A stretch of DNA of 63,898 nucleotides, counting the filler. It is 14 parts of 14 records of this genome, joined end to end, with 100 filler letters (N's around TTAATTAATTAA, not from the genome) between each part and the next. Parts side by side here need not be neighbours in the genome. Positions count along the whole stretch, not along the records: positions 47,924 to 51,235 come from SRR7504441_24903; 13 more parts are not named here. One strand, written 5' to 3'. A program made the translations under genes and the position numbers. Below, in pieces: positions 1,898-63,778 of this stretch. Position 1 is the stretch's first letter. Each line of letters opens with the position of its first letter. The notes beneath the pieces were generated by a model. It worked only from the letters and a program-made list of their open reading frames with translations, was not told the origin of the DNA and did not search any database.

Positions 1898-2848
1898 ATG
1901 ATGAAGAGCCTGGACGGCGACCTGAGCCTGCGGCTGATCAAGCAGGTGGTCTGGGAGCACGGCTGGCTGCTCTGCCGGCTGGTCTGCCGCGAGTGGCGCT
2001 CCGTCGCCGACGCGGCCCCCATCCAGTCGCTCACCCTGATGCTGGCCGCCCCAGCCGAACCGTGCATAAGGCTGCTTCGGCAGCTCCCGGGGATCCAAGA
2101 GGTCGTCTTCTCGGCCCAGCAGCCGGTGCCCGAGGGGCGTCGGGCCCCGGACGAGGCTTTGCTCGCCGCGCTGGCGGAGTGCCCCCGGCTGGAGAGGGTG
2201 CGGCTGCCCGGGTGCCTGCTGCCGGCCCGGGCGAGCCTGGGTCCAGCCGGGTGCCGCTGGGCGCACCGGGTGGAGGTGCTCGGGCCGGGCTGCCTGCTGC
2301 TGGCCCACCCGTCCCAGTTCTCAGAAGTGCAGACCTATTTCCACCAGACTGTGCTCATGCTGACTGAGCACGCCCCAAACGGATCCAAGGCGCTCATCCT
2401 CGGCCGACACAGCCGGCGGCACCGGCTCGGCACCGCTGGGCTGCCCGAGGGCTGGACCCGAGATTGGCTCCCTCGGTTCGAGGACTCCAAGGTGTACCAG
2501 GGCGGGGACGTCGGGATGGGCAATGGGATCCGGTTGCTCCACACTGGACCGGCGCTGATAGAGGGCACGACGGTAATCGGAGCACCGCACGCTGTTCATT
2601 TGGTAGAGCCGGAGCAGCTGAGCGACGCGCTGCTGGACCGGGCGGCTCGACTGGCCCAAGCCGGAGAGGCTGTGCACCCGATGGTGGGCCGGTGCGGGTG
2701 GGGTCCCGGCCAGCTGGAGGCTGAGCTGGGCGAGCGGGTCTGGTTTGGGGTTTGCTGCCAGCCGGAGATGGTGCACGACCTGCTCAAGGAGCGGGTGGAC
2801 AGCAGGCGGTTTTGGCAAGCGATGCTCGAGATGGCTTGTGTGACATGA
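1898..2848 (+). CDS. F-box-like protein fused to a DUF179 (AlgH/YqgE) domain
   Basis: N-terminus MKSLDGDLSLRLI...LCRLVCREWRSVA is F-box-like. C-terminus has LLLAHP..FHQTVLML.EH..GSKALIL, YQGGDV and GRCGWGPGQLEAEL...W, typical of DUF179. Real start is ATG 1898, not the ORF start at 1277. Confidence 0.75.
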   Translation: MMKSLDGDLSLRLIKQVVWEHGWLLCRLVCREWRSVADAAPIQSLTLMLAAPAEPCIRLLRQLPGIQEVVFSAQQPVPEGRRAPDEALLAALAECPRLERVRLPGCLLPARASLGPAGCRWAHRVEVLGPGCLLLAHPSQFSEVQTYFHQTVLMLTEHAPNGSKALILGRHSRRHRLGTAGLPEGWTRDWLPRFEDSKVYQGGDVGMGNGIRLLHTGPALIEGTTVIGAPHAVHLVEPEQLSDALLDRAARLAQAGEAVHPMVGRCGWGPGQLEAELGERVWFGVCCQPEMVHDLLKERVDSRRFWQAMLEMACVT

Positions 2849-3121
2849 TTGCGTGATTGTGACTACAACATGCACCGATTGGGCCGGGGACGTTGCTGAC
2901 GGATGCGGCGGATGCCTAGAATGATGCGTAAATGATGCGCGTTACTGTATTTCAAATCGTAAAGTGAATTGAACAAAAGTTTACTCGCGGTCTAGAGAGA
3001 AGCCGTGCCTTTGGTGCCCCACCTTCTTATTTTGTGCACCGGCTGCACCCACGAATATCAAGTAACGGCATCGATATCCGATCCAGCACCGGCAGCCTTG
3101 CCAGCGCGGTGACCCGGTCCG

Positions 3122-4656
3122 ATGTCCTCGGGCCGGTACTATCGGGTGTGGCCCAGCCAGGCCAGGCCAGTGCTAACTGGCCGGTGCGGCAGCTCGACAC
3201 GGCCGCGGGCAGCCTGTCGGCGGACGAGGCGCCGGAGAGCCCCGATAGCCGGTCCCGGTACGGCGACAAGGCCCCTTACTTCCTCGAGGACCAGCCCCAG
3301 TCGGCCACCTTTGCGGCCGGGATCAGCTCGCTCTCGGATGGCGAGCTGCAGGGCCCCAGCGCCCAGTCGGACGACGAAGCCCGATACAGCAGCCGGAGCC
3401 GGCGCAAAACAAACCTGAAGGCAGCCCGGGCCAGCGGGCCGGCTGATCCGGGGCGCAGACGTTGCGGCAGCACCACATGGGGCTGTGGCGATCCAAGCAG
3501 CTCAAGAAGCTAAAGAAAGCCCCTGAGAAGTCAACGCCGCGCACCCCGCGGTACACAGAGCCAGTCTCGCCCGACGCCCGGCTGCCGATCGCGTGCAAAT
3601 GCACCGCAGACTCTTATGACATGCAGGCGCTCTTCTCTTACGTGCCCGGCTGGCGCCTGGGCCGGGCTTGAGCATGGGGGCAGTACACGCACCACGAGAT
3701 GAACCCGCAGATCTTTGACGACGTGGTGCATGTAGAATTCGGGCTGCTGCTAGGCTCGGCGCTAGAGCTGGCGCTGAGTGGCGGGGAGAGCAAGATGGCC
3801 ACCTGGACGCTCAGCCAGGCTAAAGCCGGTAGCCGGCTGCCGCGGGCGGTCGGGTGATCGGGACCAGGCGAGCGAGCGTTTGACGCTTTCTTCTTCCCGT
3901 TTGGGGTTTTTGTTTGCTGGGGGGTGTCAGAAAACGAGATAGCGGCGCTCCAGGAGGAATTGACCGAGTTTGAGGTCAAGCCGCTCGAGCCGGAGGACGT
4001 GTACGGCGAGGAATTCGATTTCCGTTACGACAACCGAATTTACATCAACAGACTGAAGGACGAGATTGTTTTAGACGACAGGTTTAGTCGGGCCGATGAC
4101 GTGGACGCTAAGCTGGCGATCTCGCACGGACTGTCGCTCTGTGTGAAGCTGTCGGTGCGGGGAGGGCTGGGGTTGGGGTTATGACGGGGCGAGGTATTCG
4201 AGGAGGAAGTTGAGAAGACAATTCAGGAGACCAAGCATTTACCCGAGGAGCTCGCGCTGGATGGGTCGATCCATATGACAAACGACGAGATCTCCAAGAT
4301 CATCGGCGAGATATTCATCCAACGGAACTCGGTCAATCTGCACTTAGATGTGCTGGATATGCCAGATTTCTTCTGGGAACGGTATGCAATGTGCTGCCGC
4401 AGCCTGGAGCCGGGGCAGGCCTGAGCTGGAGCCGCTATACAAGCTAACCCGGTCCTATCTGGATCTGAACAAGCGGGTGGATATCCTCAACCGTCGGCTG
4501 GACGTGCTGAAGGAGCTGCTCGAGATCCTGAAGGACCAGCTCAACACGCAGCACGCAAGCACGTTAGAGTGGATTGTGATTTGGCTGATTGTGCTCGAGC
4601 TGTGCATCAGCGTAATCTGGAACATTCTGATCAAGGGCGTGCTGCACTGGGTTTGA
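3122..4656 (+). CDS. RMD1: RMD1/RMND1 (DUF155) family protein, about 6 short introns
   Basis: Spliced protein contains CTADSYD, FFFPFGVFVCWG, KLAISHGLSLCVKLSVFEE, DMPDFFWE, YLDLNKRVDILNRRL and LEWIVIWLI. Introns are 37-47 nt, including GC-AG 3421-3458. Confidence 0.88.
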
Positions 4657-23728: not shown

Positions 23729-26699
23729 ATGGAGGTGACACAGATCCTGCTGAACGCACAGAACCCGGACCTCAATGTCCGTGGTGCGGCCGAGAAGCAG
23801 CTTGAGCAGGCCCGGGATGCGCAGTTTGCTCAATTCATGGTGACGATGGTGCAGGAGCTTCAAAATGAGCAGAAGCCGACCCAGGCCCGGATGTTGGCCG
23901 GTCTGCTCGTCAAGAATGCACTTTGGGCAAAGAGCGACGCACAGTATGAGATTCACAGGCAGCGCTGGCTCGCGACAGACATGCAGGTGCGCAACCAGGT
24001 TAAGACAGGGGCACTGCAGACCACTGCCTCGCCCGACCAGCACGCCCGAGCGCAGGCGTGCAGCGTCGTGTCCAAGCTCGCATCGCTCGAGCTCCCGAAC
24101 GGAACCTGGCCCGAAGTCATCCCGGCACTGAAGGGGAATGTCTCGCAGGAGGGGAATGTCGACGCCAGACACGGTGCGCTGGTGTCGCTCGGGTTCATCT
24201 GCCAAGATCTGTCGGATATCGAGTCGGACTGTCTGGAGTCGCAGGCGAACGACGTGCTGACTGCCGTGATCCACGGGCTGCGCAAAGAGGAGACCAACAT
24301 GGAGATCAAATTTGCCGCAGCTCAAGCTCTCAACAACGCGCTCGAGTTTGCTCACGACATCTTTCAGCGAGAGCAGGAGAGAAACTACATCATGCAGCAA
24401 GTGTGTGAGGCGACCCGGGCGCAGGACCCGCGCATCAGGAGGGAATCGGTCGAGTGTCTGTGCACGATCGCATACCACTACTATGGAATGCTGACTCCAT
24501 ACATGGATGCGATTTCTCAAATCACTGTGACAGCGATCAAAGAGGACCAACAGGAGGTGGGCACTACGGCGCTGGAGTGTTGGTCTACTGTGGTCGAGGA
24601 GGAGCTCGGCATCCAAAGCGACATCGAGCAGTATGGGCAGTCGGAGCAGCAGCTGCTGAACATCACTGAGCGGGCAGTCCCGTTCCTGGTGCCACTCCTG
24701 CTTGAGTGCCTCACCAAACAGACCGGCGACGAAGACGAAGACGAGTGGACAGTGTACAAGGCCGCTGGTGTCTGCTTGGAGCTGGTCGCTCAGTGTGCCA
24801 AGGACTGTGTTGTTGAGATCGTAATGAAATTTGTCAACGAAAACGTGGCCTCTTCAAACTGGATTCTGCAAGATGCTGCCACTCTAGCTTTCGGCGCTCT
24901 TCTCGATGGGCCGTCTGAGGAGAAGCTGAGACCATGGGTGGATCAAGCTACTCGGGTATTCTTGGACACACTGTGTAGTCAGGCTAGGGTGGAGGTGCGC
25001 GACACCACTGCCTGGGCAATCGCTAAAATCCTGGAGAATCATCCTGGGCTCGTCGCCCAGGACGTTTTCCCGAAGCTGCTTGAGGCCTTGCTCAAGGCCC
25101 TTACAGGAGAGCCTCGCGTGGCTGTTCATGTGTGCTTTGCCATTGAGAAACTGGCACTTCACATTGAAGAGATGACTGCTGATGAGGAGGCAACTACTAA
25201 CCAGCTCTCGCAAGTGATGGCACCGTTGCTACAAGCACTTGTGCAAGCGGCAGATAGGCAAGATGCGTCAGAAGTGACAGCAACAGGCTTTGACTTGATG
25301 ACGTGTGCATACGACGCGCTTGACGTGCTCGTCAAGGGCTCTGCACCAGACTGTGCTCCACTGATGGTTCAGCTGGCACCAGTTATCACCAAGAAGCTTC
25401 AGGCGACCTTCCAGGTGAATCCTGTTGAATGATACGTTTGTACTGATTCTGGGATGTAGGTGAACCAGGCAAACATTTCTGACAAAGAGTGCGCACAAAT
25501 TGCAAATATGCAAGGCCAATGCTGTGGGGTTCTGCTTGGCCTGTCCACAAAGCTGGACCAGGCACAGTTGGAACAGCTGGCACCCGGAATGATGCAATGC
25601 TTTCTGCACCTATTTGTCACAAAGGCCTCCACCACGTACGAAGAAGCCTTTATGGTGATTTGCTTTGCTTAGAGCCTGTGTTGAACTTCAGCCTGTGTAG
25701 GCGATTGGCACCTTGGCATCAAATCTGGGGCCATCTTTCATGCAGTACATGCCTACTTTCAAGGATCTGCTCATCAAAGGTCTAGAGAACAGCGAAGAGC
25801 ACACAATCTGCCTGGCAGCGGTAAAAACCCACCTCCTTAATATGCGCTGGCCTTTTAGTTGTGTATGACGATCTTCACTGCTGCCTTCCTCTGGAGAGCA
25901 CTGCTCAGTGACACCATTACAGTGATGGCCCCCTGCCAGGGGCTAGCCGACACATGATGTTCAATACTTGCTTGGCCTTGCCCATTCAATCTTCGTTTAA
26001 TTGCCTGTCTGTCAGGTTGGTGTCATTGGGGACCTTTGCCGAGCTCTCAACCAGCAGATACTTCCATTCTGTGATCCAATCATGCTACAACTGATGAAGA
26101 ATTTGATTGATCAAGACCTGCACCGATCTGTGAAGCCACCAATTCTCTCATGCTTTGGGGATATAGCGCTTGCCATTGGTGCAAGCTTTGAGCCTTTCAT
26201 GGAGCACTCAATGACAATGCTTCACAATGCTGGTACAATTGTGCTCCAAGTGAATGACCCTGATGATGAGGAGTACAAGAACAAACTGCATGAAAATATT
26301 ATTGAAGGATACTCTGGAATTATCCAGGCAATGAAGGATTGCCAGCGGGCGCAATTAGTCGAGAAGTTCCTGCCCAATATTTGTGCTTTCCTTGAGGAAA
26401 AGATTGCAGCAAATCCCAACAGAGACCCTAGCATCACAAAGAGTGCCATTAACCTGGTTGGAGATCTCGCGCAGGTAATAGCTCAGCTCTGTGCGCTCTT
26501 TTGAGCTTGTGTGTGTCAGTCGATGAAAGGGTCTGTGAAGGGTTACCTACAGAGACCGTGGGTACAAAATCTGCTCAACAGTGCAGAGGCAGCAGATTGT
26601 GTCGAAGATGCCAAGTGGGCTCACTCTCAGGTGCCTTGCTCATCCAGTCAATGGCCTCTGATGATTTGAGTGTAGGTTCAAATATGTTTGAGATCATGA
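23729..26699 (+). CDS. KPNB1: Importin subunit beta-1 (karyopherin beta 1)
   Basis: RGAAEKQLEQ, RMLAGLLVKNAL, LELPNGTWPEVI, ERNYIMQQVCEAT, DEDEWTVYKAAGVCL, VRDTTAW and RSVKPPILSCFGDIALAIG; introns in the 3' half. Confidence 0.96.
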
Positions 26700-41190: not shown

Positions 41191-44100
41191 ATTCATCAGC
41201 AGCGCAATGCTGCACCCCCTATTGGAAGTCCAGGGTATGGTCCACAAATCATTGATTTGGTAGAGATTCACGCAACCAACTGGGCTGAAGCTCTCATTGT
41301 TTGTACAGGCAATGGTGTACAATTCCGAGTCGCGCACAGCAGCCAAATATTGCTTGACTTGCGAGATGGTGATGGACCACTTGATCACGGGTACCTTTAA
41401 CTGAGGTGGGCCGGTCTCTGGCAGCCATTCAGGCCGAATTGGGTCGAGGCGACCGTTTGCTTCGTGCAGCATATTGAGCGTGAGGTTCACTACACCTGGC
41501 TTCTTCTTACAGGCCAAGCGCCAAACAACATATGCCCCAGCTGCCCCAAGCACCAGAGTCCCGATGATTATAATGACTATCAACGCGGGCGATACCGTTG
41601 TCCCTTCACTGCTTGTGGCATCAGTGGTACCATTCGGAACCTCGACACCAGCAATTGCAGCAATTGCGACAGAAGTGCCAGTGATCTCGCTAATCGCTGC
41701 AGCGAGGCTGCTTGCCGTGCAGGTGTCGGAGCATCCCTCTCGCAGCCTACGCAAGGGCCAATAAGATAAACCTGTGGCTGTCGTCACGAAGGTCACAGCT
41801 AGACTGCGGCGAGCAGCCGTAGAGGTGATTGATACCCCCTTGATGTAAGTTTCGCACGGGTGCAAGCAGGCGCCAATTGCGACACCGTAGCCTCGCTCAT
41901 AGCCATTTTTCATGCCTGTGTACCAATGCGGATTTGCCGGCAGGTTGCTGAAGAGCACTTCTTGTGAGAATGTGTAAGTCTCTGCGGTAGGTGCGGGTGT
42001 GGTCGGTGGAGCACTGGTCGGCTCGTTAGTGGGTACTGCAGTGGGTGCACACGTCGAGAACTCTTGTATACCCGAGCCATCTAACCAGTTCTCAGTTGTC
42101 TTACCTGAGAGGTCCCAGCATAGTACCTGCCTCATTTGAGTGGCCCCGTAGAACATGTAATCCATCGAAGTGACGCTGCTCACATCCCAGGTCGCAATCT
42201 CTTGATCGAACACGGGCGCATTGTGAAACATATAGTCTGTGCGCGTGACAGCACTCGTGTTCCAGGTCCCAATCGGCTGGTTGAAAACAAGGGCGTTGTA
42301 GAACATGTAATTCATGTGTGTAACGGCACTCACATCCCAGCTGCCGAGTGGCTGGTCAAACGAATCGGCTTCTAGTAGCATGTGGGCCATATCAGTCACT
42401 CGGCTCACATTCCAAGTCCCAATCGGTTGATCAAACGTGAGGGCGCCGTAGAACATACTGTTCATGTTGGTCACTGAACTGGTATTCCAGTTTTGGATCT
42501 CCTGGTTGAACGAGTCTGCTCTTACGAACATCCAATACATCGAGGTCACCTTGTTGGTCTCCCAAGTGCCGATTGCCTGGTTGAACTTGATGGCTCCATC
42601 AAACATGTTCTCCATTGATGTGACCCTACTCACGTCCCAGTTCCCAATGTCCGGGTTGCCGCGGCAGCCCTCGAACAGATGAGACATGTCAGTCACCCGC
42701 GAAACATCCCAATGCTGAGGCGAACCATACTTGGCCTGGGCCTGGGCAGCGTCAGAGCACCAGGCGAGCGCTGCAGTCGCAAGATCGGCATTGGACGGTG
42801 CCCTCCATGCACTCATATTGCCGACCAGAAGTGTGCCTGAAGCCCCAACAGCGAAGATGTAAGTATTCTTGGTTACCACGCCATACAGGTCTGATGTGGT
42901 TGCAACAGTCTGCAAGCTCCAGACACTGCCTCCGTCGCTTGTGCCCAGAACTGTCCCTGAGGCACCAACTGCGAAGGCTACCGTGGGGCTGGCAAGCGAT
43001 ACTCCATATAAATCCTCTGTCGTCCCAGAGGCCTGCAAGATCCATGTACTGCCCCCGTCAGTTGTGGCCAGAATCGTCCCGCTTCCTCCGACTGCGAAGC
43101 CCACAGCAGTACTCGCGAAGTCAACCGCGTATAAACTTCGCAGGCGAGTGGAGGAGAGTGGAGTCGGTGCAGCGCTGGGCGCGTTGGTAGGCGCAAGGGT
43201 TGATAATGCAAATGTCTGTGAGGTGGGAGCCACCTGATCGTTGTCGATCCACCACGGATTGTCACCATACGGAGTGCCTTGCCGTCCTCTGCTTACAGTA
43301 CCGTCAACTGCGAGCAGGAGAATGTCGCTACATGTGAAGAGCCCTATCATCCAGTAGCCCCAGCCGTCGACGGAACTCATCGATATCCGAAGCTGAGTGG
43401 GTTCGCCAGACAGGCTAAAGGTTTTGCGCTGTGCTGATCCTAGCGTGGTTCCATCAGTGATGCTGTCAGGACTGAAAAAATCCGTAGGGGTAGTCCATGC
43501 GCCGCCCACTTTGAATTGAGTTTCGACTGCCGCGTTAGTCTCGGCATTTGTTTGAGTACTAGTCCGGCTGATTAAAGTGACCACATTTGTTTGGCACGCA
43601 GTCAAACAGTCAGCTGCGGACAGGTCGACGTCATATGTTTGTGTTGCCGGGCTTGTAGAACCGAGCCACCATCTGTTGATGCCCTGCGCAGTCCCGGCCT
43701 CCCCATTCGAGTCGACTGCAACAACGAGTTCTAGGTCGCACATGAACAGCGCGACCATCCAATACCCCCAGCTGGATCCTGCGCTGGTCTGGTTACTACC
43801 AACCAGCTCAAGCCGTGTCGGCTCACCAGACAGGATGAAGATCTTTTGCTTGCGTTCTCCAGCGGCGGCACCAGTGAAAAACTCTTCAGGAGCAGTCCAG
43901 GCAGCGTTTACAAAGAATCGAACAAAGACCGTGGATGTCGTTTGGGCGCTCGTCATGTTAATGGTCTCAACAGTCAATATCACCGTCCTCTGTATTTCCC
44001 GGTACGACTGTAAATTCCATGTATAGCCTCCGTCGGTCGTGGCCAAAATCGTCTGATTTGCACCGACAGCAAAGCCCACCGTCAGGCTCGGAAATGAGAC

Positions 44101-44562
44101 ACCGTACAGGTCCGCTGTGGTCAGGCTGATCCATGTATAGCCTGCGTTAGTCGTGGCCAGAACCGTCCCATTCGCTCCGATTGCGGAGCCCACAGTGGGG
44201 CTGGCGAATACAATAGCATGCAAATCCAGCCCACCCAGTGTCGGTACGGATGCAAGCTTTGATGCAGGATACCACCCTGAGCTAGCTCCGTCGATCGTGC
44301 CCAGAACCGTGCCCGAGGCCCCGACCATGCCGCCCACAGTGGCGCTTGCGAAGGAGACACCGTACAGGTCCTTTGTAGTCCCGCTGGTCTGCAAGGTCCA
44401 GCTAGTGCCTGCATCAGTGGTGCCCAGAACTGTCCCATTCGCGCCGACCGCGAAGCCTGCAGTCGAGGACGAGAATGCCAGGCCTCGCAAATCTTGTATC
44501 GTCCCGCTGGACTGTAAGCTCCAAGTTGCTTGCACGCCAGCTGGGGAGGGGGGGGGGGGGGG
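41191..44562 (-). CDS. Large membrane-anchored surface protein: YCF48/BNR-like propeller repeats, two PLAT-like domains, DUF285 (BspA/PARCEL) repeats, TM helix; both ends truncated
   Basis: DLYGVSF..PTVGFAVGA.GT.L.T.DGG..W repeats; about 8 25-aa repeats of type IGNWDVSRVTSM..MF..A..FNQ; PT-rich linkers; TM LIVIIIIGTLVLGAAGAYVVW followed by KKK; intronless. Confidence 0.85.
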
Positions 44563-47530: not shown

Positions 47531-48000
47531 GCCGGCCGGCGCCGCAAATATATATCAATTTTATCCGTGTACGTATACGAGCATTTTAAATACCGTCAAG
47601 GATTAGGTGCACTGGTCATACACATGTGATTGTATCTTATAGCTGTGCACATAGTCCACAATCTACGAAATCAATCTAAGAGTGTTAACAAATCACACAC
47701 CCTTTCGCGGGCCATGTCGCGAGCCTAAGAAAGTGCGCCCCTGTACCAGTATGCGGATCCTTGCCAGGCAAGATCTAGATCGCCATTGGTTAACGCTTGG
47801 CCTAGACTTTATTGAAAATACTCNNNNNNNNNNNNNNNNNNNNNNNNNNNNNNNNNNNNNNNNNNNNTTAATTAATTAANNNNNNNNNNNNNNNNNNNNN
47901 NNNNNNNNNNNNNNNNNNNNNNNCTATGTGGCAAAGTGTGTATTCAAAGCAAAAAGTCCGTTGAGACAGCTCACTCAAACTTGGCCCCCGCGCCCACTCG

Positions 48001-50961
48001 ATGCAGCCCGAACTGGCAGCGCTGGACCAGCTGGACCCGAACCTGCCGGCCCAGGCGCCGCCCAAGCCGCCCACCCAGTCCGATCCGGAGGACGAGCGCT
48101 GCGCGGTCTGCCTTTCTGACGAGTACCAGGACGGGGATCTCATCCTCTTCTGCGACGGGTGTAACCTGCCGGTGCACCAGGTGCGGCAGCGGGCTGCCCG
48201 GGCAGCAGTGCGGGGCAGAGCTGCTACGGCGTCGAGACCGTGCCCGAGGGCGACTGGTACTGCAGTGCATGCTCCCGGGATGAGGCGGACCGGCGCTGTG
48301 CGCTCTGCCCGGCGCGCGGCGGTGCGCTCAAGCCGACCACGGACGGCCGGATGGCCCACCTGGTGTGCGCGACCTGGACCGGTGGAGCGTCGATCCTGGT
48401 GCGGCCGGTCAGGGCCAGGCCGGGAGCTTGGGCAGGAACCGGACACGCGGATGGAGCCGATCGACTTGTCGCAGATGGTTCCCGACCAGTTTAAACTCAA
48501 GTGCTACGTGTGCGGCGAGCAGACCGGCTCGTGCGTCCAGTGCTCCAAACCCAACTGCTACAAGGCCTTCCACGTGACCTGCGCGGTCAAGCACGGATTT
48601 GAACTTTCGCTCGACGAGGACGGCTGCTGGACCCGGCACTGCCACATGCACCACTCAGCCAAGCCAGCCAGCAGCTTCGGGGCGCTGCACGCTAGCCGGG
48701 CCGGGCCTAAGCCGCCCAAGCGGGCCCGGGCCTCTCAGGCGAGGGAGCAGATGGAGGAGCGGCGGTTCAAGTGCAGGGTGTGTGGCCTGTTCAAACAGGG
48801 AGAGCACAAATGTCCAGGGCAGCGAGCCGAGTTGGCGCTCGCCGAGCTGCGCAGCCACGGCCGTCTGGACGAGGCGAACGCGCTCCATCAGCTGATCTGC
48901 TCGCAGCATCGCGAGGAGAGCCTTCAGGCTGTCGAAGAGACGTGCAAGAAGCGGCGAGCCAAACCGGCCAAAGGTTCTCGCAAGACCGGACAGCGTGCTG
49001 CGGCCCCGCGGACCGAGGCCAAGCCCAGGCCGGACGTGGCGGCGCGGGTGGCGGAGCTGGAGCTGGAGTTGAAGCAGTGCGAAGATCAGCTCCCGAGCTG
49101 CGCGACAGAGGTGCAGCTGGTACTGGTGAGCCCGGACGAGCCTGGCCAGCCTGAGACGGTGTCGACCGTGCCTGCCGAGCCTGGGCTGCGGACTGAGCAG
49201 GACTGCCGGCGGCGGATAGGAGAGCTCACTGCCGAGTTGGGCAAGCTGCACGACCAGCATGCGTCGTTCATGCGGCTGCTGGAGGAAAACAAGAGAAGGA
49301 CGTCCTTGATGCGAGATAAGATGGAACTGGCCCCAGGGCAAGAGCAAGAGCCGGCGCTCGAGAAACCGACCAATGACACGGCCGGGGTCAGGACTGTGCT
49401 GCGCTATTTTCAAAAGTGGTATATGGAAGAGGTAATGAACGAGCAGATCAGGATCGCGACGTCCACTGACGGGCAGGGCAAGCACAGTCGGCCTGACTTG
49501 CAGGCGATGAGCCGTTGCAAGGCCAACAAGATGACCACGCACGACGAGCGGCGGCCGGGCCAGCTGGACGGGATTGCGCCCGGGTTCCGATTCTTCTCGC
49601 GGTCGGAGATGGTGGTGGTCGGAATGCACGGCAAGTGGATGGGTGGCATCGATTGGGTCAAGGAGGGTCCAGCCACATGCGTGGTTGTGTCTGGCGGGTA
49701 CGAGGACGACGTCGACAACGGCGAGGAGCTGATCTACACCGGACAGGGCGGGAACGACATCAATAGCACTCGGAAGCAAATGAAAGATCAGCAGCTGACT
49801 CGTGGCAACCTGGCGCTTACGCTCAATGCAAGGGACAAGCTGCCTGTGCGGCTGGTGCGAGGCCACCCGGATAGCCAGTCCTACACGCAGAAAGTGTATA
49901 CTTATGACGGGCTATACGACGTGACGGAGTGGTTTGCTGAGGTTGGCAAAGAAGGGTACACTGTGTACAAGTATCGGATGAAGCGTTGCCCTGACCAGCC
50001 ACCTCTCTCGACAGATCCGGTCTCGTTCAAGCTGTGCTCGCTGCCCACCAGCACCCGGCCGCTAGACAGGGAGGGGCTGGTGCTCGAGGACGTCACTGGC
50101 GGGCTGGAGGCCACTCCGGTGCCCGTGGTGAATGTGGTTGATGATGAGCCGGCACCGCTCGACTTTGAGTACCGGCTAGACCTCAAAAGAGACCCGAACG
50201 TGATCGTGAAGCCGTGTGAAGGCTGCCCGGAGGGCTGCGACTGCTCAAACGCTCGCGAATGCCCTTGCGCTCAGCGGAACGGCGGGCAAGTGCCGTATGT
50301 AATGATTCGAAACCAGAGCTCGCCGCATCTGTGGCAGCCGCGTCCTGTGGTGTACGAGTGTGGGCCAGCATGCCACTGCGGACCGGACTGCATCAACCGA
50401 GTGGCCCAGCGGCACGTGCTGCAGGGCTTCAAGCCTCACCGACTGGAGGTGTTCAAGACTGCGAGCAAGGGCTGGGGCGTCCGCTCCTGGGATTCGATCA
50501 ACGCTGGCTCCTTCCTGTGCATGTACTCGGGCAGGCTACTGCGAGATGAGGAGGCCGAGCTGCTGGATGACGACATGTACACTTTCGATCTCGACATGAT
50601 TCAGACTCAAGCCGGGGTGGGTGGAAGACACCGGCGTGATGCGCCAGCCGACGGTGACGGCGTTGAGCAGCCTGCTGTTTCGGATCATGCCGAGTTCTGC
50701 GTGGACTCGCGGCACTACGGCACAGTGGCTCGATTCATCAACCACAGCTGCGCGCCCAACCTGTTTGTGCAGAATGTGCTCTTTGACCACTTGGACCAAC
50801 GGATCCCGTGGGTGGCCCTGTTCGCAGCTCAGAACATTGCGCCGTTGGAGGAGCTCTCGTACGACTATGGGTACACTGGCACGGTGATGGACAAGGAAGG
50901 CGTGGTCAAGAAGCTCAAGTGCAACTGTGGCGCTGCGGAGTGCCGCCAATGGCTGCTGTAG
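48001..50961 (+). CDS. PZP (PHD-Zn knuckle-PHD) plus SRA-YDG, pre-SET, SET and post-SET histone H3K9 methyltransferase, SUVH4/KRYPTONITE-like; introns 48181-48218 and 48399-48435
   Basis: After splicing: CAVC..FCDGCNLPVHQSCYGV..VPEGDWYCSAC, CALCP..GGALK..AHLVCA and CYVC...CVQCSKPNCYKAFHVTCA. SRA: SGGYEDD..YTGQGG..GNLAL..YTYDGLY. SET: KGWGVRS, ARFINHSCAPN, ELSYDYG, CNCGAAECR. Confidence 0.93.
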   Translation: MQPELAALDQLDPNLPAQAPPKPPTQSDPEDERCAVCLSDEYQDGDLILFCDGCNLPVHQVRQRAARAAVRGRAATASRPCPRATGTAVHAPGMRRTGAVRSARRAAVRSSRPRTAGWPTWCARPGPVERRSWCGRSGPGRELGQEPDTRMEPIDLSQMVPDQFKLKCYVCGEQTGSCVQCSKPNCYKAFHVTCAVKHGFELSLDEDGCWTRHCHMHHSAKPASSFGALHASRAGPKPPKRARASQAREQMEERRFKCRVCGLFKQGEHKCPGQRAELALAELRSHGRLDEANALHQLICSQHREESLQAVEETCKKRRAKPAKGSRKTGQRAAAPRTEAKPRPDVAARVAELELELKQCEDQLPSCATEVQLVLVSPDEPGQPETVSTVPAEPGLRTEQDCRRRIGELTAELGKLHDQHASFMRLLEENKRRTSLMRDKMELAPGQEQEPALEKPTNDTAGVRTVLRYFQKWYMEEVMNEQIRIATSTDGQGKHSRPDLQAMSRCKANKMTTHDERRPGQLDGIAPGFRFFSRSEMVVVGMHGKWMGGIDWVKEGPATCVVVSGGYEDDVDNGEELIYTGQGGNDINSTRKQMKDQQLTRGNLALTLNARDKLPVRLVRGHPDSQSYTQKVYTYDGLYDVTEWFAEVGKEGYTVYKYRMKRCPDQPPLSTDPVSFKLCSLPTSTRPLDREGLVLEDVTGGLEATPVPVVNVVDDEPAPLDFEYRLDLKRDPNVIVKPCEGCPEGCDCSNARECPCAQRNGGQVPYVMIRNQSSPHLWQPRPVVYECGPACHCGPDCINRVAQRHVLQGFKPHRLEVFKTASKGWGVRSWDSINAGSFLCMYSGRLLRDEEAELLDDDMYTFDLDMIQTQAGVGGRHRRDAPADGDGVEQPAVSDHAEFCVDSRHYGTVARFINHSCAPNLFVQNVLFDHLDQRIPWVALFAAQNIAPLEELSYDYGYTGTVMDKEGVVKKLKCNCGAAECRQWLL

Positions 50962-51599
50962 CCTTCTCCTCAAATGTTAGGTCCCTATATGCTCGTTGGA
51001 ATATCGTTGGAAGATTAGAAGTTTAGGTCTACGTAGGTAGCACCATGTGCCATGATCAAGCATGCCCGGAGAGGTTGATCGACCCTATTTTTCATACTCT
51101 AGTCATCCTCTACGTACTCGATCCGTCGATCGATTCGGTGCCACTACACACGACATCGACGCGCGATCGAATTTTATTTAAACACGCGTTTAATAATTAG
51201 AGATCTGTCACAGTGTATTGCATAGAAACGTTAAANNNNNNNNNNNNNNNNNNNNNNNNNNNNNNNNNNNNNNNNNNNNTTAATTAATTAANNNNNNNNN
51301 NNNNNNNNNNNNNNNNNNNNNNNNNNNNNNNNNNNTTGTCAGTGAGCATTTCCGTGCCAGCCAAGCACATAAGTCTATTTAGTCAAACAACTACGAGTAC
51401 AAGTCGATTAAATATTGTTCGGTATGATCTTAGTCTTGTTTAACTGACGGTGAAAGGATGCTAGAGAATGTTTTAATATGTACTGCTCCATTTAGTGAGC
51501 GCCCGCTTGAAGGTCTCTAAAGGATTTCAATGTTATCTAAAGGACAAATCAAAGTAGTCGTTAGCTCCGCCGGTCCCTCAAAATCCCAAGCCAGGCCCC

Positions 51600-52836
51600 A
51601 CCTTGTTCAGTTGGCGCAACCGGTCAGCTTCCCATACCAGTGCCGGATCCCGCCACCTGCCTCAATCGATCAGCCCCAATCCCCAGCACACAGCCCCAAT
51701 CTCCAAACTCACCCTGTCGCACGCCGCCGTTCCGCCACCCCTGCCTGCGCCGCCCTCTCCACTCGCCTGCCCCCGTCTCGCCCGCCGTTGCGGAAGTTCC
51801 GAAGACACCGGGCCTGAAGGTTTGACCGGAGACCGGACCTCCATTCCGCATAGTGACGAACCTGTTTGGGCTCACCCCGATCACCCGGCAGCAGCGCACC
51901 GCTTCGTGGTGTTCCAGTTGCTGTCGTTTGAGGAGGTCAACCCTGCCCCACCTCCCGGCTGCCTGGCCCGCCTCGCCACCTTCGGACCCATTCGAGCCGC
52001 TGAAGCTTCGCTGGAAGCGCCTCCCACCTCCGCCCACCACTCAGCAGACCCGCCCGCCTGCCAACCCACCAAGACTTGCGCGGATCGCGCCCCGAACCGC
52101 GCCGGCTGCCAGAGTCTATCCCGGGCCTGCCCCGCGATCGGGCCGCCGGGAGCGCCGGTACGTACCAGCTGCCAGGGTGAGCCACGAGTTGCCGGGTAGC
52201 GTATCTACTCGCACCGGCCGCACGGCAGGCCAGCGCCCCGCCGGACGAGAGAAGCGCCTCCGTGGCGGCGGCCTCAAGCTGCTCGAGCAGCTGCCCCGCC
52301 GGGCTTGGCACAAACCAGAACCGGCGGAGAGACCTGGCCGAACGTCGGACGAGGGACAGTGCAATCTGGGAGGGTGGCGATCATCGAATGGACCTGCACG
52401 GCCTGAGCTGGTGGGGCGAGTGGCGCACCAGCTGGGCCACGTGGTTGGGGCTGAGCACGTCGGTGTACCCGAGCACCTCGATCAGCTCATCGGCGTGGAT
52501 AGCTAAGTCCCTCAACCCGACCCGGGCCATCCGAGCGGTCGCGTAGGCCTCTATCTTGTTGTACAGCTGCCAGGCACGGTCCAGGTACGGCTGGCGCATA
52601 TCTGGCCGCATGGCCCGGCTGGCGGTCGCCGGAAGGTCCGCGATCGGCAGCTGCCGGGCCAGCACAGCCCGCTGGATGGCTCCGGGCGAATCGAGCACGA
52701 GCCGGGGGCGGGCCGAGCCCGAAGCCTGGCCGAAGGGGAGCGCGTAGTCGAGCAGCAGCAGCGCCCGGTAGAGAAGCACCCCCACCACCACCAGCAGAAT
52801 CGCCGCGGGCCACGAGGTGAATAGCTCCGTCTCCAT
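51600..52836 (-). CDS. Unidentified spliced protein with N-terminal TM helix; 3' end approximate
   Basis: METELFTSWPAAILLVVVGVLLYRALLLL start, coding-like exons in several frames; no family recognised. Confidence 0.45.
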
Positions 52837-52917
52837 TGGCCCGGCTCGAATCACTCCCCGAGCCTCGGAATAACGGAACTATTCGAGTGTTTCGACAACA
52901 CGGAAGGCGGCCCAGCT

Positions 52918-53853
52918 ATGCTGCGGCTGGTGTTCGCGCCGGCTGGCAGTAGCTCAAGGCCGGCCACGAAGCCAGCGGCCCGCACTGCGGCAGTTTGGAG
53001 CGCCCGGCGCGGGCTGAGCCGGCTGCCGGACCCGCACAACGTGTCGGACCAGCTGGACCCGGCCACTTCGGCCCGGATCGTCAGCCGGCTCGAGGCCCGC
53101 GGGCAGGACAGAGTCTTCCAGTCGCTCTTTCGCGGCTACTTCCCGGAGCTCCGACAGTGCACTAACGTGCTCGAGCTCGGCTGCGGCACCGGGGTGGTCC
53201 TCCGGGCGTTGCTGAGGGATGCCGAGTTTACCGGTAAGGCTACTGGGGCAGACCTGAGCCCGGCTTTCTTAGAGACGGCGCGGGAGCTGGCTACGGCGGA
53301 GGGCTGTGACCCAAACCGGCTGCGATTCATGCTGGCCGACGCCCAGAATGAGGGCAGCGTGGGAGCGGATGCTGGGTTTGACGCGGTTGTGATGCACACG
53401 CTGATCAGCCACACCAGCGACCCGGGCGCAGTGCTGCGGCAGGCGGCCAGACTGGCGGCGCCCGGGGCGCTGCTGGTCGTGATGGACGGTGACTACGGCT
53501 CGCTGACCTATGCCAACCCGATCGATCCGGAGCTCGGTCGGCGGATGGATGCGGCGCTGGTTAGCGCCATCTTCGCTCAGCCGAACGCGATGAGGGGACT
53601 GGCCCAGATGCTCCCGCCAGCCGGCTGGCGGCTGGAAGAGGCGCGCAGCCAGTGCGTTAGCGAGGTCGGGGGGGAGGCGAGCTATTGGGTAAGCTTCGCG
53701 GAGGGCTATCTGCCGCGTGTGGTTGAGGCTGGGTTGGTGGACCAGGCTACGGCCGACCAGTGGTGGGAAGGACAGAAAGCCAATCTGGCCAGTGGTCATT
53801 TCTTCGCAGCGGCGAACTACTACACGTTCTTAGCTCGGCTCGCTAGTACTTGA
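52918..53853 (+). CDS. Class I SAM-dependent methyltransferase (UbiE-like), possible organellar presequence
   Basis: VLELGCGTG, GADLSPAFL, FDAVVMHTLISH and APGALLVVMDGDY; R/S/A-rich N-terminus; intronless. Confidence 0.88.
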   Translation: MLRLVFAPAGSSSRPATKPAARTAAVWSARRGLSRLPDPHNVSDQLDPATSARIVSRLEARGQDRVFQSLFRGYFPELRQCTNVLELGCGTGVVLRALLRDAEFTGKATGADLSPAFLETARELATAEGCDPNRLRFMLADAQNEGSVGADAGFDAVVMHTLISHTSDPGAVLRQAARLAAPGALLVVMDGDYGSLTYANPIDPELGRRMDAALVSAIFAQPNAMRGLAQMLPPAGWRLEEARSQCVSEVGGEASYWVSFAEGYLPRVVEAGLVDQATADQWWEGQKANLASGHFFAAANYYTFLARLAST

Positions 53854-62383: not shown

Positions 62384-63742
62384 TTAGTTGAAGATGTCCT
62401 CGTCTTCGTCTAAGCTTAGGTACTCGTCTTCGTCTAGGTAGCTAGACTGGCGGTGGCCCGGCTTTGGGCGCCTAGGGCCGCTCGGGCAAGGATCTACTGG
62501 GACTAGTGTTTGTCCGGGCTCGTACTCATACCACGGCGCATGCCCTGATAAGCCGGTGCCACCGATCACAGGCCCACTCTCTTGAACGAATCTGATATAG
62601 CCCGTCCCTCCACGGCAACGATGACTTGACGTGTGCGACGGGTACAGCCGCCGGACCCTGTTATAGTCTCGCTCGGCTATGAGCTGCCAATCCTCTTTCC
62701 CAAACCGCACGAACCGCCAAATACAATCCAGGATCCCCTCCGGTAGCGCCCACCGCCCGTGGAGCGCCCCCGAAAGCGCCTGTAGCGTCTCGTCCTTGGC
62801 GCTCGATGCGAGCAGCCGAGGCAGTTCTGAGGCGGCCGGAGCCTGCGGGGAATCTGGGTCGACTAAGTGCAGCGCGACCAGCAGCCGTCGGCCAGTCCCG
62901 CTGACGGGCGTCACACGGTGTCGGAGCGTTGCATTGTGGAATACGAGGATCGATCCGCTGGCCGGGGCCTCGCTGCACAACAATGGCGGCTCCTCGTCTC
63001 GTAGATTGGCCTGGTCTGCAAACTGGACATCCCCGCCTTCGAGCCCAGGGCCCACCTCGATATAGCTAGTAGCGGTGGCCACGATCCGCTCGGCGGGTGT
63101 CCCATCCACATGCCAATCCGAGATGGCGGCGTCAGACTGGCCACTCAGCCTGTGCTCAAACGCGCCGACCACCACCTGCAGCCGCCGCCCGCCGAGCTCG
63201 CGCCCGAGCACCGCCTCCCAATGCGGCAGCGCTAGGCCCGATAATTCGGCGAGGTCGCTGAGCAGACCGGCGTGCTGGCGCGGGCAGAGGTGGTTGACCC
63301 AGGAGCGCCACTCAACCTCGTTAGACGGCGTCACCTCGAGCTCAGCAGACTGCCAGCAATCGCACCAGTCGGGCTCCGACGCGTCCTCTTCGTCCTCGTC
63401 GTCGTCGTCCAGGTAGCTAGACCGGCGGTGGCCCGGCTTTGGGCGCCCCTCTGCCCTGCGCGACCTGCCGCCATCCACGGCCTCGTGCGCTTGGCTGAGG
63501 CAGAGCTCCGGGTCTATGATGTCAGTCCAGACGCGGTCCCGCCGCCCCTGGAACAACCCGCCGCCCTCGGCCCGCAGCCGGTCAAGCCCCGCGGCCAGCC
63601 GAGCCTGGAGGGCCGGCCGGACAGCCTGGCGTAGGTGGAGCACCAGCGGGTTCTCGGCCGGGTCGGGTGCTTCAGGCGAGGCTCCCTGCGCCTTCGACTC
63701 TTTCCCTGAAGGGCAGCGAGGCCGGGAGGCAGTGGAGCCCAT
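62384..63742 (-). CDS. DUF4246-like 2OG-Fe(II) oxygenase-fold protein with MGSTAS myristoylation-like start
   Basis: SWVNHL.P..H, WHVDG...ERIVATATSY, LVFHN..LRHRVTP and RRLLVALHLVDP. Confidence 0.7.
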   Translation of the reverse strand: MGSTASRPRCPSGKESKAQGASPEAPDPAENPLVLHLRQAVRPALQARLAAGLDRLRAEGGGLFQGRRDRVWTDIIDPELCLSQAHEAVDGGRSRRAEGRPKPGHRRSSYLDDDDEDEEDASEPDWCDCWQSAELEVTPSNEVEWRSWVNHLCPRQHAGLLSDLAELSGLALPHWEAVLGRELGGRRLQVVVGAFEHRLSGQSDAAISDWHVDGTPAERIVATATSYIEVGPGLEGGDVQFADQANLRDEEPPLLCSEAPASGSILVFHNATLRHRVTPVSGTGRRLLVALHLVDPDSPQAPAASELPRLLASSAKDETLQALSGALHGRWALPEGILDCIWRFVRFGKEDWQLIAERDYNRVRRLYPSHTSSHRCRGGTGYIRFVQESGPVIGGTGLSGHAPWYEYEPGQTLVPVDPCPSGPRRPKPGHRQSSYLDEDEYLSLDEDEDIFN

Positions 63743-63778
63743 TTTCTACGATTGAGGGACGTGGGCTAGCGCTCTCCG

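Follow-up and report, generated by a model that had tools for sequence, protein, structure and literature searches.

A spliced and expressed gene encoding a KRYPTONITE/SUVH4-type enzyme with an N-terminal PZP module

The window analyzed here (the whole 63,898-nt stretch of DNA) contains a gene at 48001–50961 (+) that is real, expressed and spliced, and that encodes a KRYPTONITE (KYP)/SUVH4-type enzyme with an N-terminal PZP module (PHD finger, zinc knuckle and extended PHD finger). The window was composed of 14 separate contigs of 3.2–7.4 kb (55–65% G+C), joined by linkers of the form N44-TTAATTAATTAA-N44, and gene order across these linkers is therefore meaningless. The gene occupied one contig (47924–51235; 3312 bp, 62% G+C), so that its neighbors in the window are not its neighbors in the genome. 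The sequencing runs with pieces of this contig were marine and aquatic metagenomes and metatranscriptomes. We consider it probable that a single nuclear gene of an uncultured marine eukaryote encodes this 961-aa chromatin enzyme, in which a SUVH4 module, a linker and a BRPF/JADE-type PZP are combined, and that it has the function proposed below.

Gene model and the PZP module

The open reading frame (ORF) extended from stop to stop over 47965–50961 (998 codons). When it was read straight through, Pfam detected no more than half a PHD finger and, of the extended PHD, its final two thirds (zf-HC5HC2H_2 positions 38–109). In the +2 frame, 48219–48398 supplied the missing PHD_2 positions 17–35 and zf-HC5HC2H_2 positions 2–29. 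Removal of 48181–48218 (38 nt) and 48399–48435 (37 nt), both with GT..AG ends and in phase 0, gave a protein of 961 aa with one terminal stop from three exons (48001–48180, 48219–48398, and 48436–50961). The earlier note had proposed two introns of these sizes, a product of this length and the concealment of the N-terminal domain in the ORF, and all three were reproduced.

The domain numbering supported both joints. Over the first, PHD_2 ran from positions 2–16 in exon 1 to 17–35 in exon 2, and in the BRPF1-H3 fusion 6U04 residue 49 closed exon 1 and residue 50 opened exon 2. Over the second, zf-HC5HC2H_2 positions 2–29 lay in exon 2 and 38–109 in exon 3. Splicing was examined by aligning the Logan contigs of four marine RNA runs to contig 47924–51235. 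A 251-nt oligo-dT RNA contig aligned with 48300–48397 and 48435–48587; its two sides had 0 and 2 mismatches, and the shorter measured 98 nt. Because it skipped exactly 37 nt with GT..AG ends, intron 2 was assigned to 48399–48435 as a segment spliced out in RNA. We infer intron 1 (48181–48218) from the exact continuity of the domain and the need to restore the frame: its length must be 2 modulo 3, since removal of the 37-nt intron 2 has to leave the ATG at 48001 in frame. Other AG sites within it would yield introns of 25 or 28 nt.

Short introns are normal in this assembly: an importin-beta gene on another contig (23729–26633, +) has introns of 45–46 nt. Compared with a database protein at 88–95% identity, its introns were located at 25415–25459 (45 nt), 25655–25700 (46 nt), 25821–26015 (~195 nt), and near 26472–26516 (~45 nt), all with GT..AG ends. 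The short ones started with GTGA and contained more A+T than the exons. The ends shared by the two introns of the SUVH4-type gene (GTGCGGC...GGGCAG) were tried as a general signature and rejected, as the window had three matches where 1.93 were expected, a number that 29 of 100 shuffles also reached.

The spliced N-terminus (approximately residues 21–185) matched 11 of 11 BRPF/JADE-type PZP proteins with E values of 4e-45 to 7e-36 in a database of 12 sequences. The alignment was free of gaps at both exon joints, and all zinc ligands were kept in PHD1 (C4HC3), in the CxxC...HxxC knuckle, and in the extended PHD; the succession of PHD, zinc knuckle and extended PHD claimed for the N-terminus was thus confirmed. 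In Pfam the PZP, being spliced, was checked as pieces rather than as a whole. Exon 1 (48001–48180) starts at the first ATG of the ORF and encodes an acidic, proline-rich lead of 30 aa and the first half of PHD1 (CxxC...CxxC...H); it matched Pfam PHD at 3e-4 and PHD1 of BRD1/BRPF1 at E values of 1e-6 to 1e-5. Exon 2 (48219–48398) completes PHD1, continues through the zinc knuckle and opens the extended PHD, and on its own it matched the BRPF1 PZP 5ERC (E 5e-15, chain residues 31–84). The rest of the extended PHD, which is the PHD2 part of the PZP, lies at the start of exon 3 (48436–48651; zf-HC5HC2H_2, 5.7e-15) and matched the BRPF1 and Jade-3 PZP at E values of about 1e-11 to 1e-12.

Among solved structures, the best relatives of the PZP were BRPF1 (5ERC, 6U04), followed by JADE1, AF10, JADE3, NTO1, and PHF14. 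PHD1, the knuckle, the extended PHD, and the zinc ligands were the same as in the PZP of BRPF1, JADE1/3, AF10, and NTO1 (5ERC, 6U04, 8GDX, 11AF, 5DAG), whereas the loop after the knuckle was one residue longer in the window protein. EPL1, bromo and PWWP domains were not found in the protein with Pfam (PF10513 tested to E 0.1); PF10513 was present in 9 of the 11 PZP proteins recovered with the N-terminal part. The absence of the EPL1/enhancer-of-polycomb-like domain places the protein outside the BRPF/JADE scaffold family, with which it has only the PZP module in common. In BRPF/JADE-type proteins the PZP belongs to an acetyltransferase scaffold, whereas here it is fused to a methyltransferase.

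The SUVH4-type module and its phylogeny

The C-terminal module was encoded in one open exon, in which Pfam detected SAD_SRA (2.4e-47 to 2.9e-47), Pre-SET (1.2e-15 to 1.5e-15), and SET (8e-21 to 1e-20). These matches are far beyond chance. Two KYP-type N-terminal helices (49378–49524), which aligned with SUVH4 proteins (columns 447–500), precede the SAD/SRA domain (49558–49998), a predicted reader of 5-methylcytosine (5mC) that was matched by the KYP SRA at 2.9e-42. They are followed by the zinc-cysteine cluster of the Pre-SET (50101–50400), the SET catalytic domain (50470–50871), and the post-SET and stop codon (50920–50961), with the CxCx4C motif at 50920–50943 and the stop at 50959–50961. 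The order SRA, pre-SET, SET and post-SET given in the earlier note was therefore recovered, and it is the order of KRYPTONITE/SUVH4 (4QEN, 4QEO, 4QEP), including the two N-terminal helices. Compared with KYP, the window protein has ~430 extra N-terminal residues, which comprise the PZP and a helical linker.

The last ~500 aa were 40–48% identical to streptophyte SUVH4. Of the 120 homologues listed, 119 were SRA+Pre-SET+SET proteins at 38–46% identity, and those with names were streptophyte proteins mostly labeled SUVH4. A PHD family was listed in none of the 120, which agrees with the statement that plant SUVH4 is without PHD or PZP. Sequence scores against solved structures were 458 bits for KYP, 331 for SUVH6, and 275 for SUVH9. 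In a Foldseek search with the predicted fold, KYP (4QEN) also came first, with a template modeling (TM) score of 0.88 and a root-mean-square deviation of 2.9 Å, followed by SUVH6 and SUVH9. The fold was an AlphaFold2 model of exon 3 only, built from a 38-row alignment, with a mean predicted local distance difference test (pLDDT) score of 72.7. The helices before the SRA (exon-3 residues 315–342 and 353–363; pLDDT about 89–93) fell within the structural match to 4QEN.

The residues of the 5mC pocket and the SET motifs were conserved. The 5mC pocket of SUVH5, in which two Tyr stack and an Asp reads the Watson-Crick edge, has Tyr416, Asp418, Tyr428, and Gln431 (PMC4740795, in part), and all four were kept in the alignment of the window SRA, a likeness to KYP. 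The thumb residue is Met in the window protein, Leu in KYP and Gln in SUVH5, and is thus hydrophobic in both the window protein and KYP. The NHSC and YDYGY-type motifs were identical to those of KYP, the GWG-type motif aligned with that of KYP, and the post-SET CxCx4C was present. The pre-SET cysteines aligned with KYP, one pair having a shifted spacing that distinguishes the protein from plant SUVH4.

The phylogeny placed the protein on the SUVH4 side. In a FastTree analysis of 154 rows, it paired with P0028 (support 100), its sole close relative found, within a 29-row SUVH4 clade (support 99) that contained Arabidopsis, Selaginella, Physcomitrium and fern SUVH4, Closterium, the prasinophyte Cymbomonas, and four metagenomic proteins. 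In a quick IQ-TREE analysis of 47 rows chosen from the FastTree set (107 were left out), the 22-row SUVH4 side had a Shimodaira–Hasegawa approximate likelihood ratio test (SH-aLRT) value of 93, and the SUVH1-like and SUVH5/6-like rows fell on the other side. The streptophyte SUVH4 group (16 rows, SH-aLRT 95) excluded the window protein, which sets it apart from plant SUVH4. The grouping with SUVH4, apart from SUVH1-like and SUVH5/6-like rows in trees without an outgroup, together with the bit scores and the fold match, upheld the claim that the C-terminal module is specifically KYP-like.

The linker and the single-gene question

The linker between the two modules (48652–49377) belonged to no known family, and it had no Pfam match at E values up to 0.1. 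It contained a CxxC...HxC stretch followed by three long predicted helices (48814–49329), which AlphaFold2 placed at exon-3 residues 127–174, 199–218, and 254–298 (block pLDDT about 68–88). The long helices agree with part of the earlier proposal of a coiled coil here; the coiled coil as such is plausible rather than shown. In the exon-3-only model, the portion of the extended PHD that opens the exon had a pLDDT <50, which is to be expected of a truncated domain and is not evidence against the PZP. The CxxC...HxC motif (CxxC-x8-H-x-C) lies at 48772–48813 (+), between the PZP and the helical part; it had no family match and low model confidence, and it could be a small zinc knuckle.

Exon 3 stayed open throughout, between its extended-PHD part and the terminal stop codon. 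The GC content at third codon positions (GC3) was 0.88 in exons 1 and 2, each in its own frame, and 0.58–0.90 per 150-nt block of exon 3, where that at second positions (GC2) was 0.36–0.58; the flanks fell to 43–52% G+C. Within the linker (48670–49380), no in-frame stop was found, against five and six in the other two frames, and GC3 was 0.74–0.84. P0028, a 477-aa fragment from another assembly (62–64% identical), shared the linker with the window protein from approximately exon-3 residue 161 onward and joined the linker helices to the SRA. This gene call, made on a contig of 5.3 kb, is incomplete at its 3′ end, and its predicted start lies within the linker.

It is very improbable that the contig is an assembly chimera of a PZP gene and a SUVH gene, whether of the same organism or of another. 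The source assembly is fragmented (3–7 kb contigs), and the best DNA run contained only 0.28 of the sampled words, both of which would fit a chimera. However, the joint would have to lie inside one open exon in which frame and codon bias are unbroken, an RNA contig continues from exon 2 for 150 nt into exon 3, and P0028 independently links the linker to the SRA. The unsupported stretch was thereby reduced to ~48660–48915.

Further RNA contigs at ≥95% identity covered 49951–50227, 50425–50781, and 50846–51069. Those on 50425–50781, in the SET domain, were at least 99% identical, and the one on 50846–51069 crossed the stop codon into the 3′ flank with 0 mismatches. These matches in several regions indicate that the gene is present in the RNA libraries of several studies. 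Regarding RNA over the fusion, to which the earlier note had pointed, splicing of intron 2 and transcription of several parts of the gene were observed, while no single RNA contig of the four runs spanned the PZP to the SET. The RNA-free parts of the gene (47924–48215 and 48588–49950, foreign pieces aside) are uninformative either way.

RNA contigs that matched at 49036–49075 only, or over 42 nt at 48216–48257, continued into unlike sequence and were rejected as coming from other genes or organisms. The latter was a 342-nt polyA RNA contig (run X10) of a foreign gene or organism, which matched the start of exon 2 and encoded a PHD1-like peptide before the match, with H-Q-S-C-Y-G running across the place of intron 1 in the window. 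It may derive from a relative of the PZP-SRA-SET gene or from any other PZP gene.

Another explanation is that the fusion is real in the DNA and that the main product is without a working PZP, because of an internal start or promoter or because intron 1 is retained. With intron 1 retained, translation in the frame of exon 2 could start only at an in-frame Met inside the zinc knuckle. This explanation is in line with the lack of RNA contig cover over intron 1 and the linker, and with the predicted protein of P0028, which begins within the linker. However, PHD1 is intact on either side of intron 1 and stays in phase across it, exon 1 has a GC3 of 0.88 in a continuous frame, and the start of P0028 says little, as this gene call from a short contig also lacks its 3′ end. 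We regard such a product as quite unlikely to be the main one, and a PZP-SUVH4 protein was retained as the preferred reading.

Proposed function, occurrence and evolution

The best-supported interpretation is that the protein would read both 5mC and the H3 tail or nucleosome, and that this would feed methylation of histone H3 at lysine 9 (H3K9). Judging from the conserved residues, the SRA would flip out and hold 5mC, as in KYP, and the SET domain would methylate H3K9. In BRPF1, PHD1 binds residues 1–7 of unmodified H3 and PHD2 binds DNA (PMC4705663, in part). By analogy with BRPF1, PHD1 of the window protein may hold the unmodified H3 N-terminus and its extended PHD may touch DNA. H3K9 methylation would then be targeted to nucleosomes that have methylated DNA and an H3 tail unmarked near its N-terminus, and a single polypeptide would couple the histone mark to DNA methylation. 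Because PHD1 of BRPF1 occupies H3 residues 1–7, we speculate that the PZP would more likely sit on the second tail, or on the tail of a neighboring nucleosome, than on the tail being methylated.

Several points weigh against this proposal. In the four marine runs, intron 1 was uncovered and 48588–49950 was unbridged by RNA contigs, so that a full-length fusion transcript was not seen; RNA depth was low (about 2–3 per contig), and the contigs came from metatranscriptomes. A DNA methyltransferase was found in none of the 20 other window ORFs scanned, and the observed/expected CpG ratios of 0.74–0.97 are uninformative on 5mC. Some SUVH proteins bind methylated DNA without silencing; SUVH1 is the subject of PMC4737185. 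The trees were built without a non-SUVH outgroup, which leaves the root open, and SUVH2/9 fell outside the best 150 representatives. The SUVH4 grouping in IQ-TREE (93) was below the starred level, and the letter make-up of the window row was unusual.

Three other window genes were recorded. The ORF at 52825–53850 (+) encodes a class I S-adenosylmethionine-dependent methyltransferase of the Methyltransf_25/11 type, which does not belong to the DNA cytosine methyltransferase family. On the minus strand, a 1124-codon ORF (41191–44562) fills its contig and runs off both ends, with DUF285 repeats (3.4e-68) and BNR/Ycf48-like repeats (5.3e-24), and 62387–63745 holds a DUF4246/2-oxoglutarate-Fe(II) oxygenase-like ORF.

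The protein might also be a SUVH-type binder of methylated DNA that acts as a non-silencing recruiter or anti-silencing factor, similar to SUVH1/3 or SUVH2/9, and that is directed by the PZP to active or unmarked chromatin. The outputs of the SUVH family do differ, and PZP modules otherwise belong to acetyltransferase scaffolds. However, the SET, pre-SET and post-SET motifs were complete, the protein was closer to the catalytically active KYP than to SUVH9 (458 vs. 275 bits), and it grouped apart from the SUVH1-like clade in the trees. We thus hold this alternative to be unlikely and keep to an H3K9 writer that would be guided by both readers.

The PZP-SRA-SET combination turned up in no search beyond the window protein itself; the remote searches were run with unspliced pieces rather than the joined protein. 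The best 150 of 9825 representatives aligned only from query residue 163 on. With phmmer, the N-terminal 260 aa matched none of 268 fetched proteins, and when the first 345 aa encoded by exon 3 served as the query, 11 proteins were recovered, all BRPF/JADE-like and none with an SRA or SET. A combination of SRA and PHD was absent from the Atlas clusters shown. In metagenomes, the patterns VGMHGKW and YDVTEWF matched 123 stretches, none of which was confirmed. Patterns drawn from an alignment of five rows led to 80 SRA or SUVH loci in a second scan; none exceeded 45% identity over long matches, and neither the PZP nor the linker was found in any of these 80 (tblastn, E 0.01).

A SET survey of 16 Archaeplastida listed, in the part available, only the SRA-PreSET-SET, SRA-SET and SRA-PreSET-SET-SET forms (PMC5725981). 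PZP-SRA-SET was not found in the accessible portions of three other sources (10.1101/2021.11.30.470311, PMC11982613, PMC8566409), the last of which gives Chlamydomonas SET3p as a SUVH homologue, and the literature searches returned no description of it. These absences are weak with respect to close relatives, because the databases hold one fragment of a close relative and gene callers break at such introns.

Two further metagenomic proteins, P0133 (which is also locus L010, with its match at 2294–3886) and P0258, fall in the SUVH4-side clade and likewise carry an added N-terminal histone-reader domain; theirs is a PTM/DIR17-like Tudor (3.9e-17 and 8.4e-7), whereas that of the window protein is a PZP. 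In both, SRA and SET follow the Tudor, the pre-SET was undetected by Pfam, and most of its cysteines were missing in the alignment. They are microalgal-type SUVH4-like proteins, and their Tudor-SRA-SET form is not in the survey's list as far as it was available (PMC5725981). Since they carry a Tudor in the same clade, a reader has been added to a SUVH4-type enzyme more than once.

Two known proteins are similar in design. SETDB1 and UHRF1 each combine a methyl-DNA-binding domain with histone readers in one polypeptide: SETDB1 is Tudor-MBD-SET with H3K9 methylation as its output, and UHRF1 is UBL-TTD-PHD-SRA-RING, a chromatin-directed E3 ligase. Their domain families and order differ from those of the window protein, with which homology is limited to the SRA or SET; the UHRF1 SRA was among its PDB matches. 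As an architecture, the design that the earlier note called possibly undescribed was found nowhere else in these searches, but its general plan (a 5mC reader, a histone reader and an H3K9 writer or effector in one protein) has these known analogues. Trithorax/ATX-type proteins also have an extended PHD (zf-HC5HC2H) and a SET in one protein (Atlas cluster, rank 30), but their SET is of the H3K4 type, from another SET family, and they have no SRA or pre-SET.

The importin-beta gene provided some information on the host. Its relatives were found at 66–95% identity, the best named match was at 41% (Pavlovales sp.), and plants were at 38–40%. In a tree of 43 rows, it fell in an environmental clade beside MMETSP rows, apart from plants, haptophytes, and opisthokonts. 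In contrast to the plant hosts of KYP, the window host is thus a marine eukaryote whose importin-beta stands apart from plants and from the other named rows. The SUVH module is closer to streptophyte proteins (45–48% identity) than the importin-beta of the host is to plant ones, a difference that fits either strong constraint or transfer from a green lineage and proves neither.

Here, a wider reading was also considered, which we advance tentatively and, taken as a whole, with more doubt than confidence. In unicellular marine eukaryotes, SUVH4-type enzymes may be a family whose readers have been exchanged, the same 5mC-reading H3K9 writer being gated by a PZP in the window protein and by a Tudor in P0133 and P0258. 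In the PZP form, H3K9 methylation coupled to DNA methylation would be confined to nucleosomes whose H3 N-terminus is unmodified (H3K4me0), and the SUVH module may have been acquired by a non-green lineage via endosymbiotic or horizontal transfer. If true, H3K4me0 gating would be a step that is absent from plant KYP itself.

The coupling of DNA methylation to H3K9 methylation by SUVH/KYP is a textbook plant mechanism, and studies of it have, to our knowledge, been confined almost entirely to land plants and Chlamydomonas. A SUVH4-type enzyme wired to a nucleosome and H3-tail reader would offer a direct test of how the writing of heterochromatin avoids active chromatin, and two activities that elsewhere reside on separate proteins could be studied in one recombinant protein. 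Introns of 37–46 nt in such assemblies can conceal domains from ORF-based annotation. Together with its Tudor relatives, the protein shows that, in microbial eukaryotes, the SUVH4 lineage has a greater age and modularity than plant genome surveys would imply.

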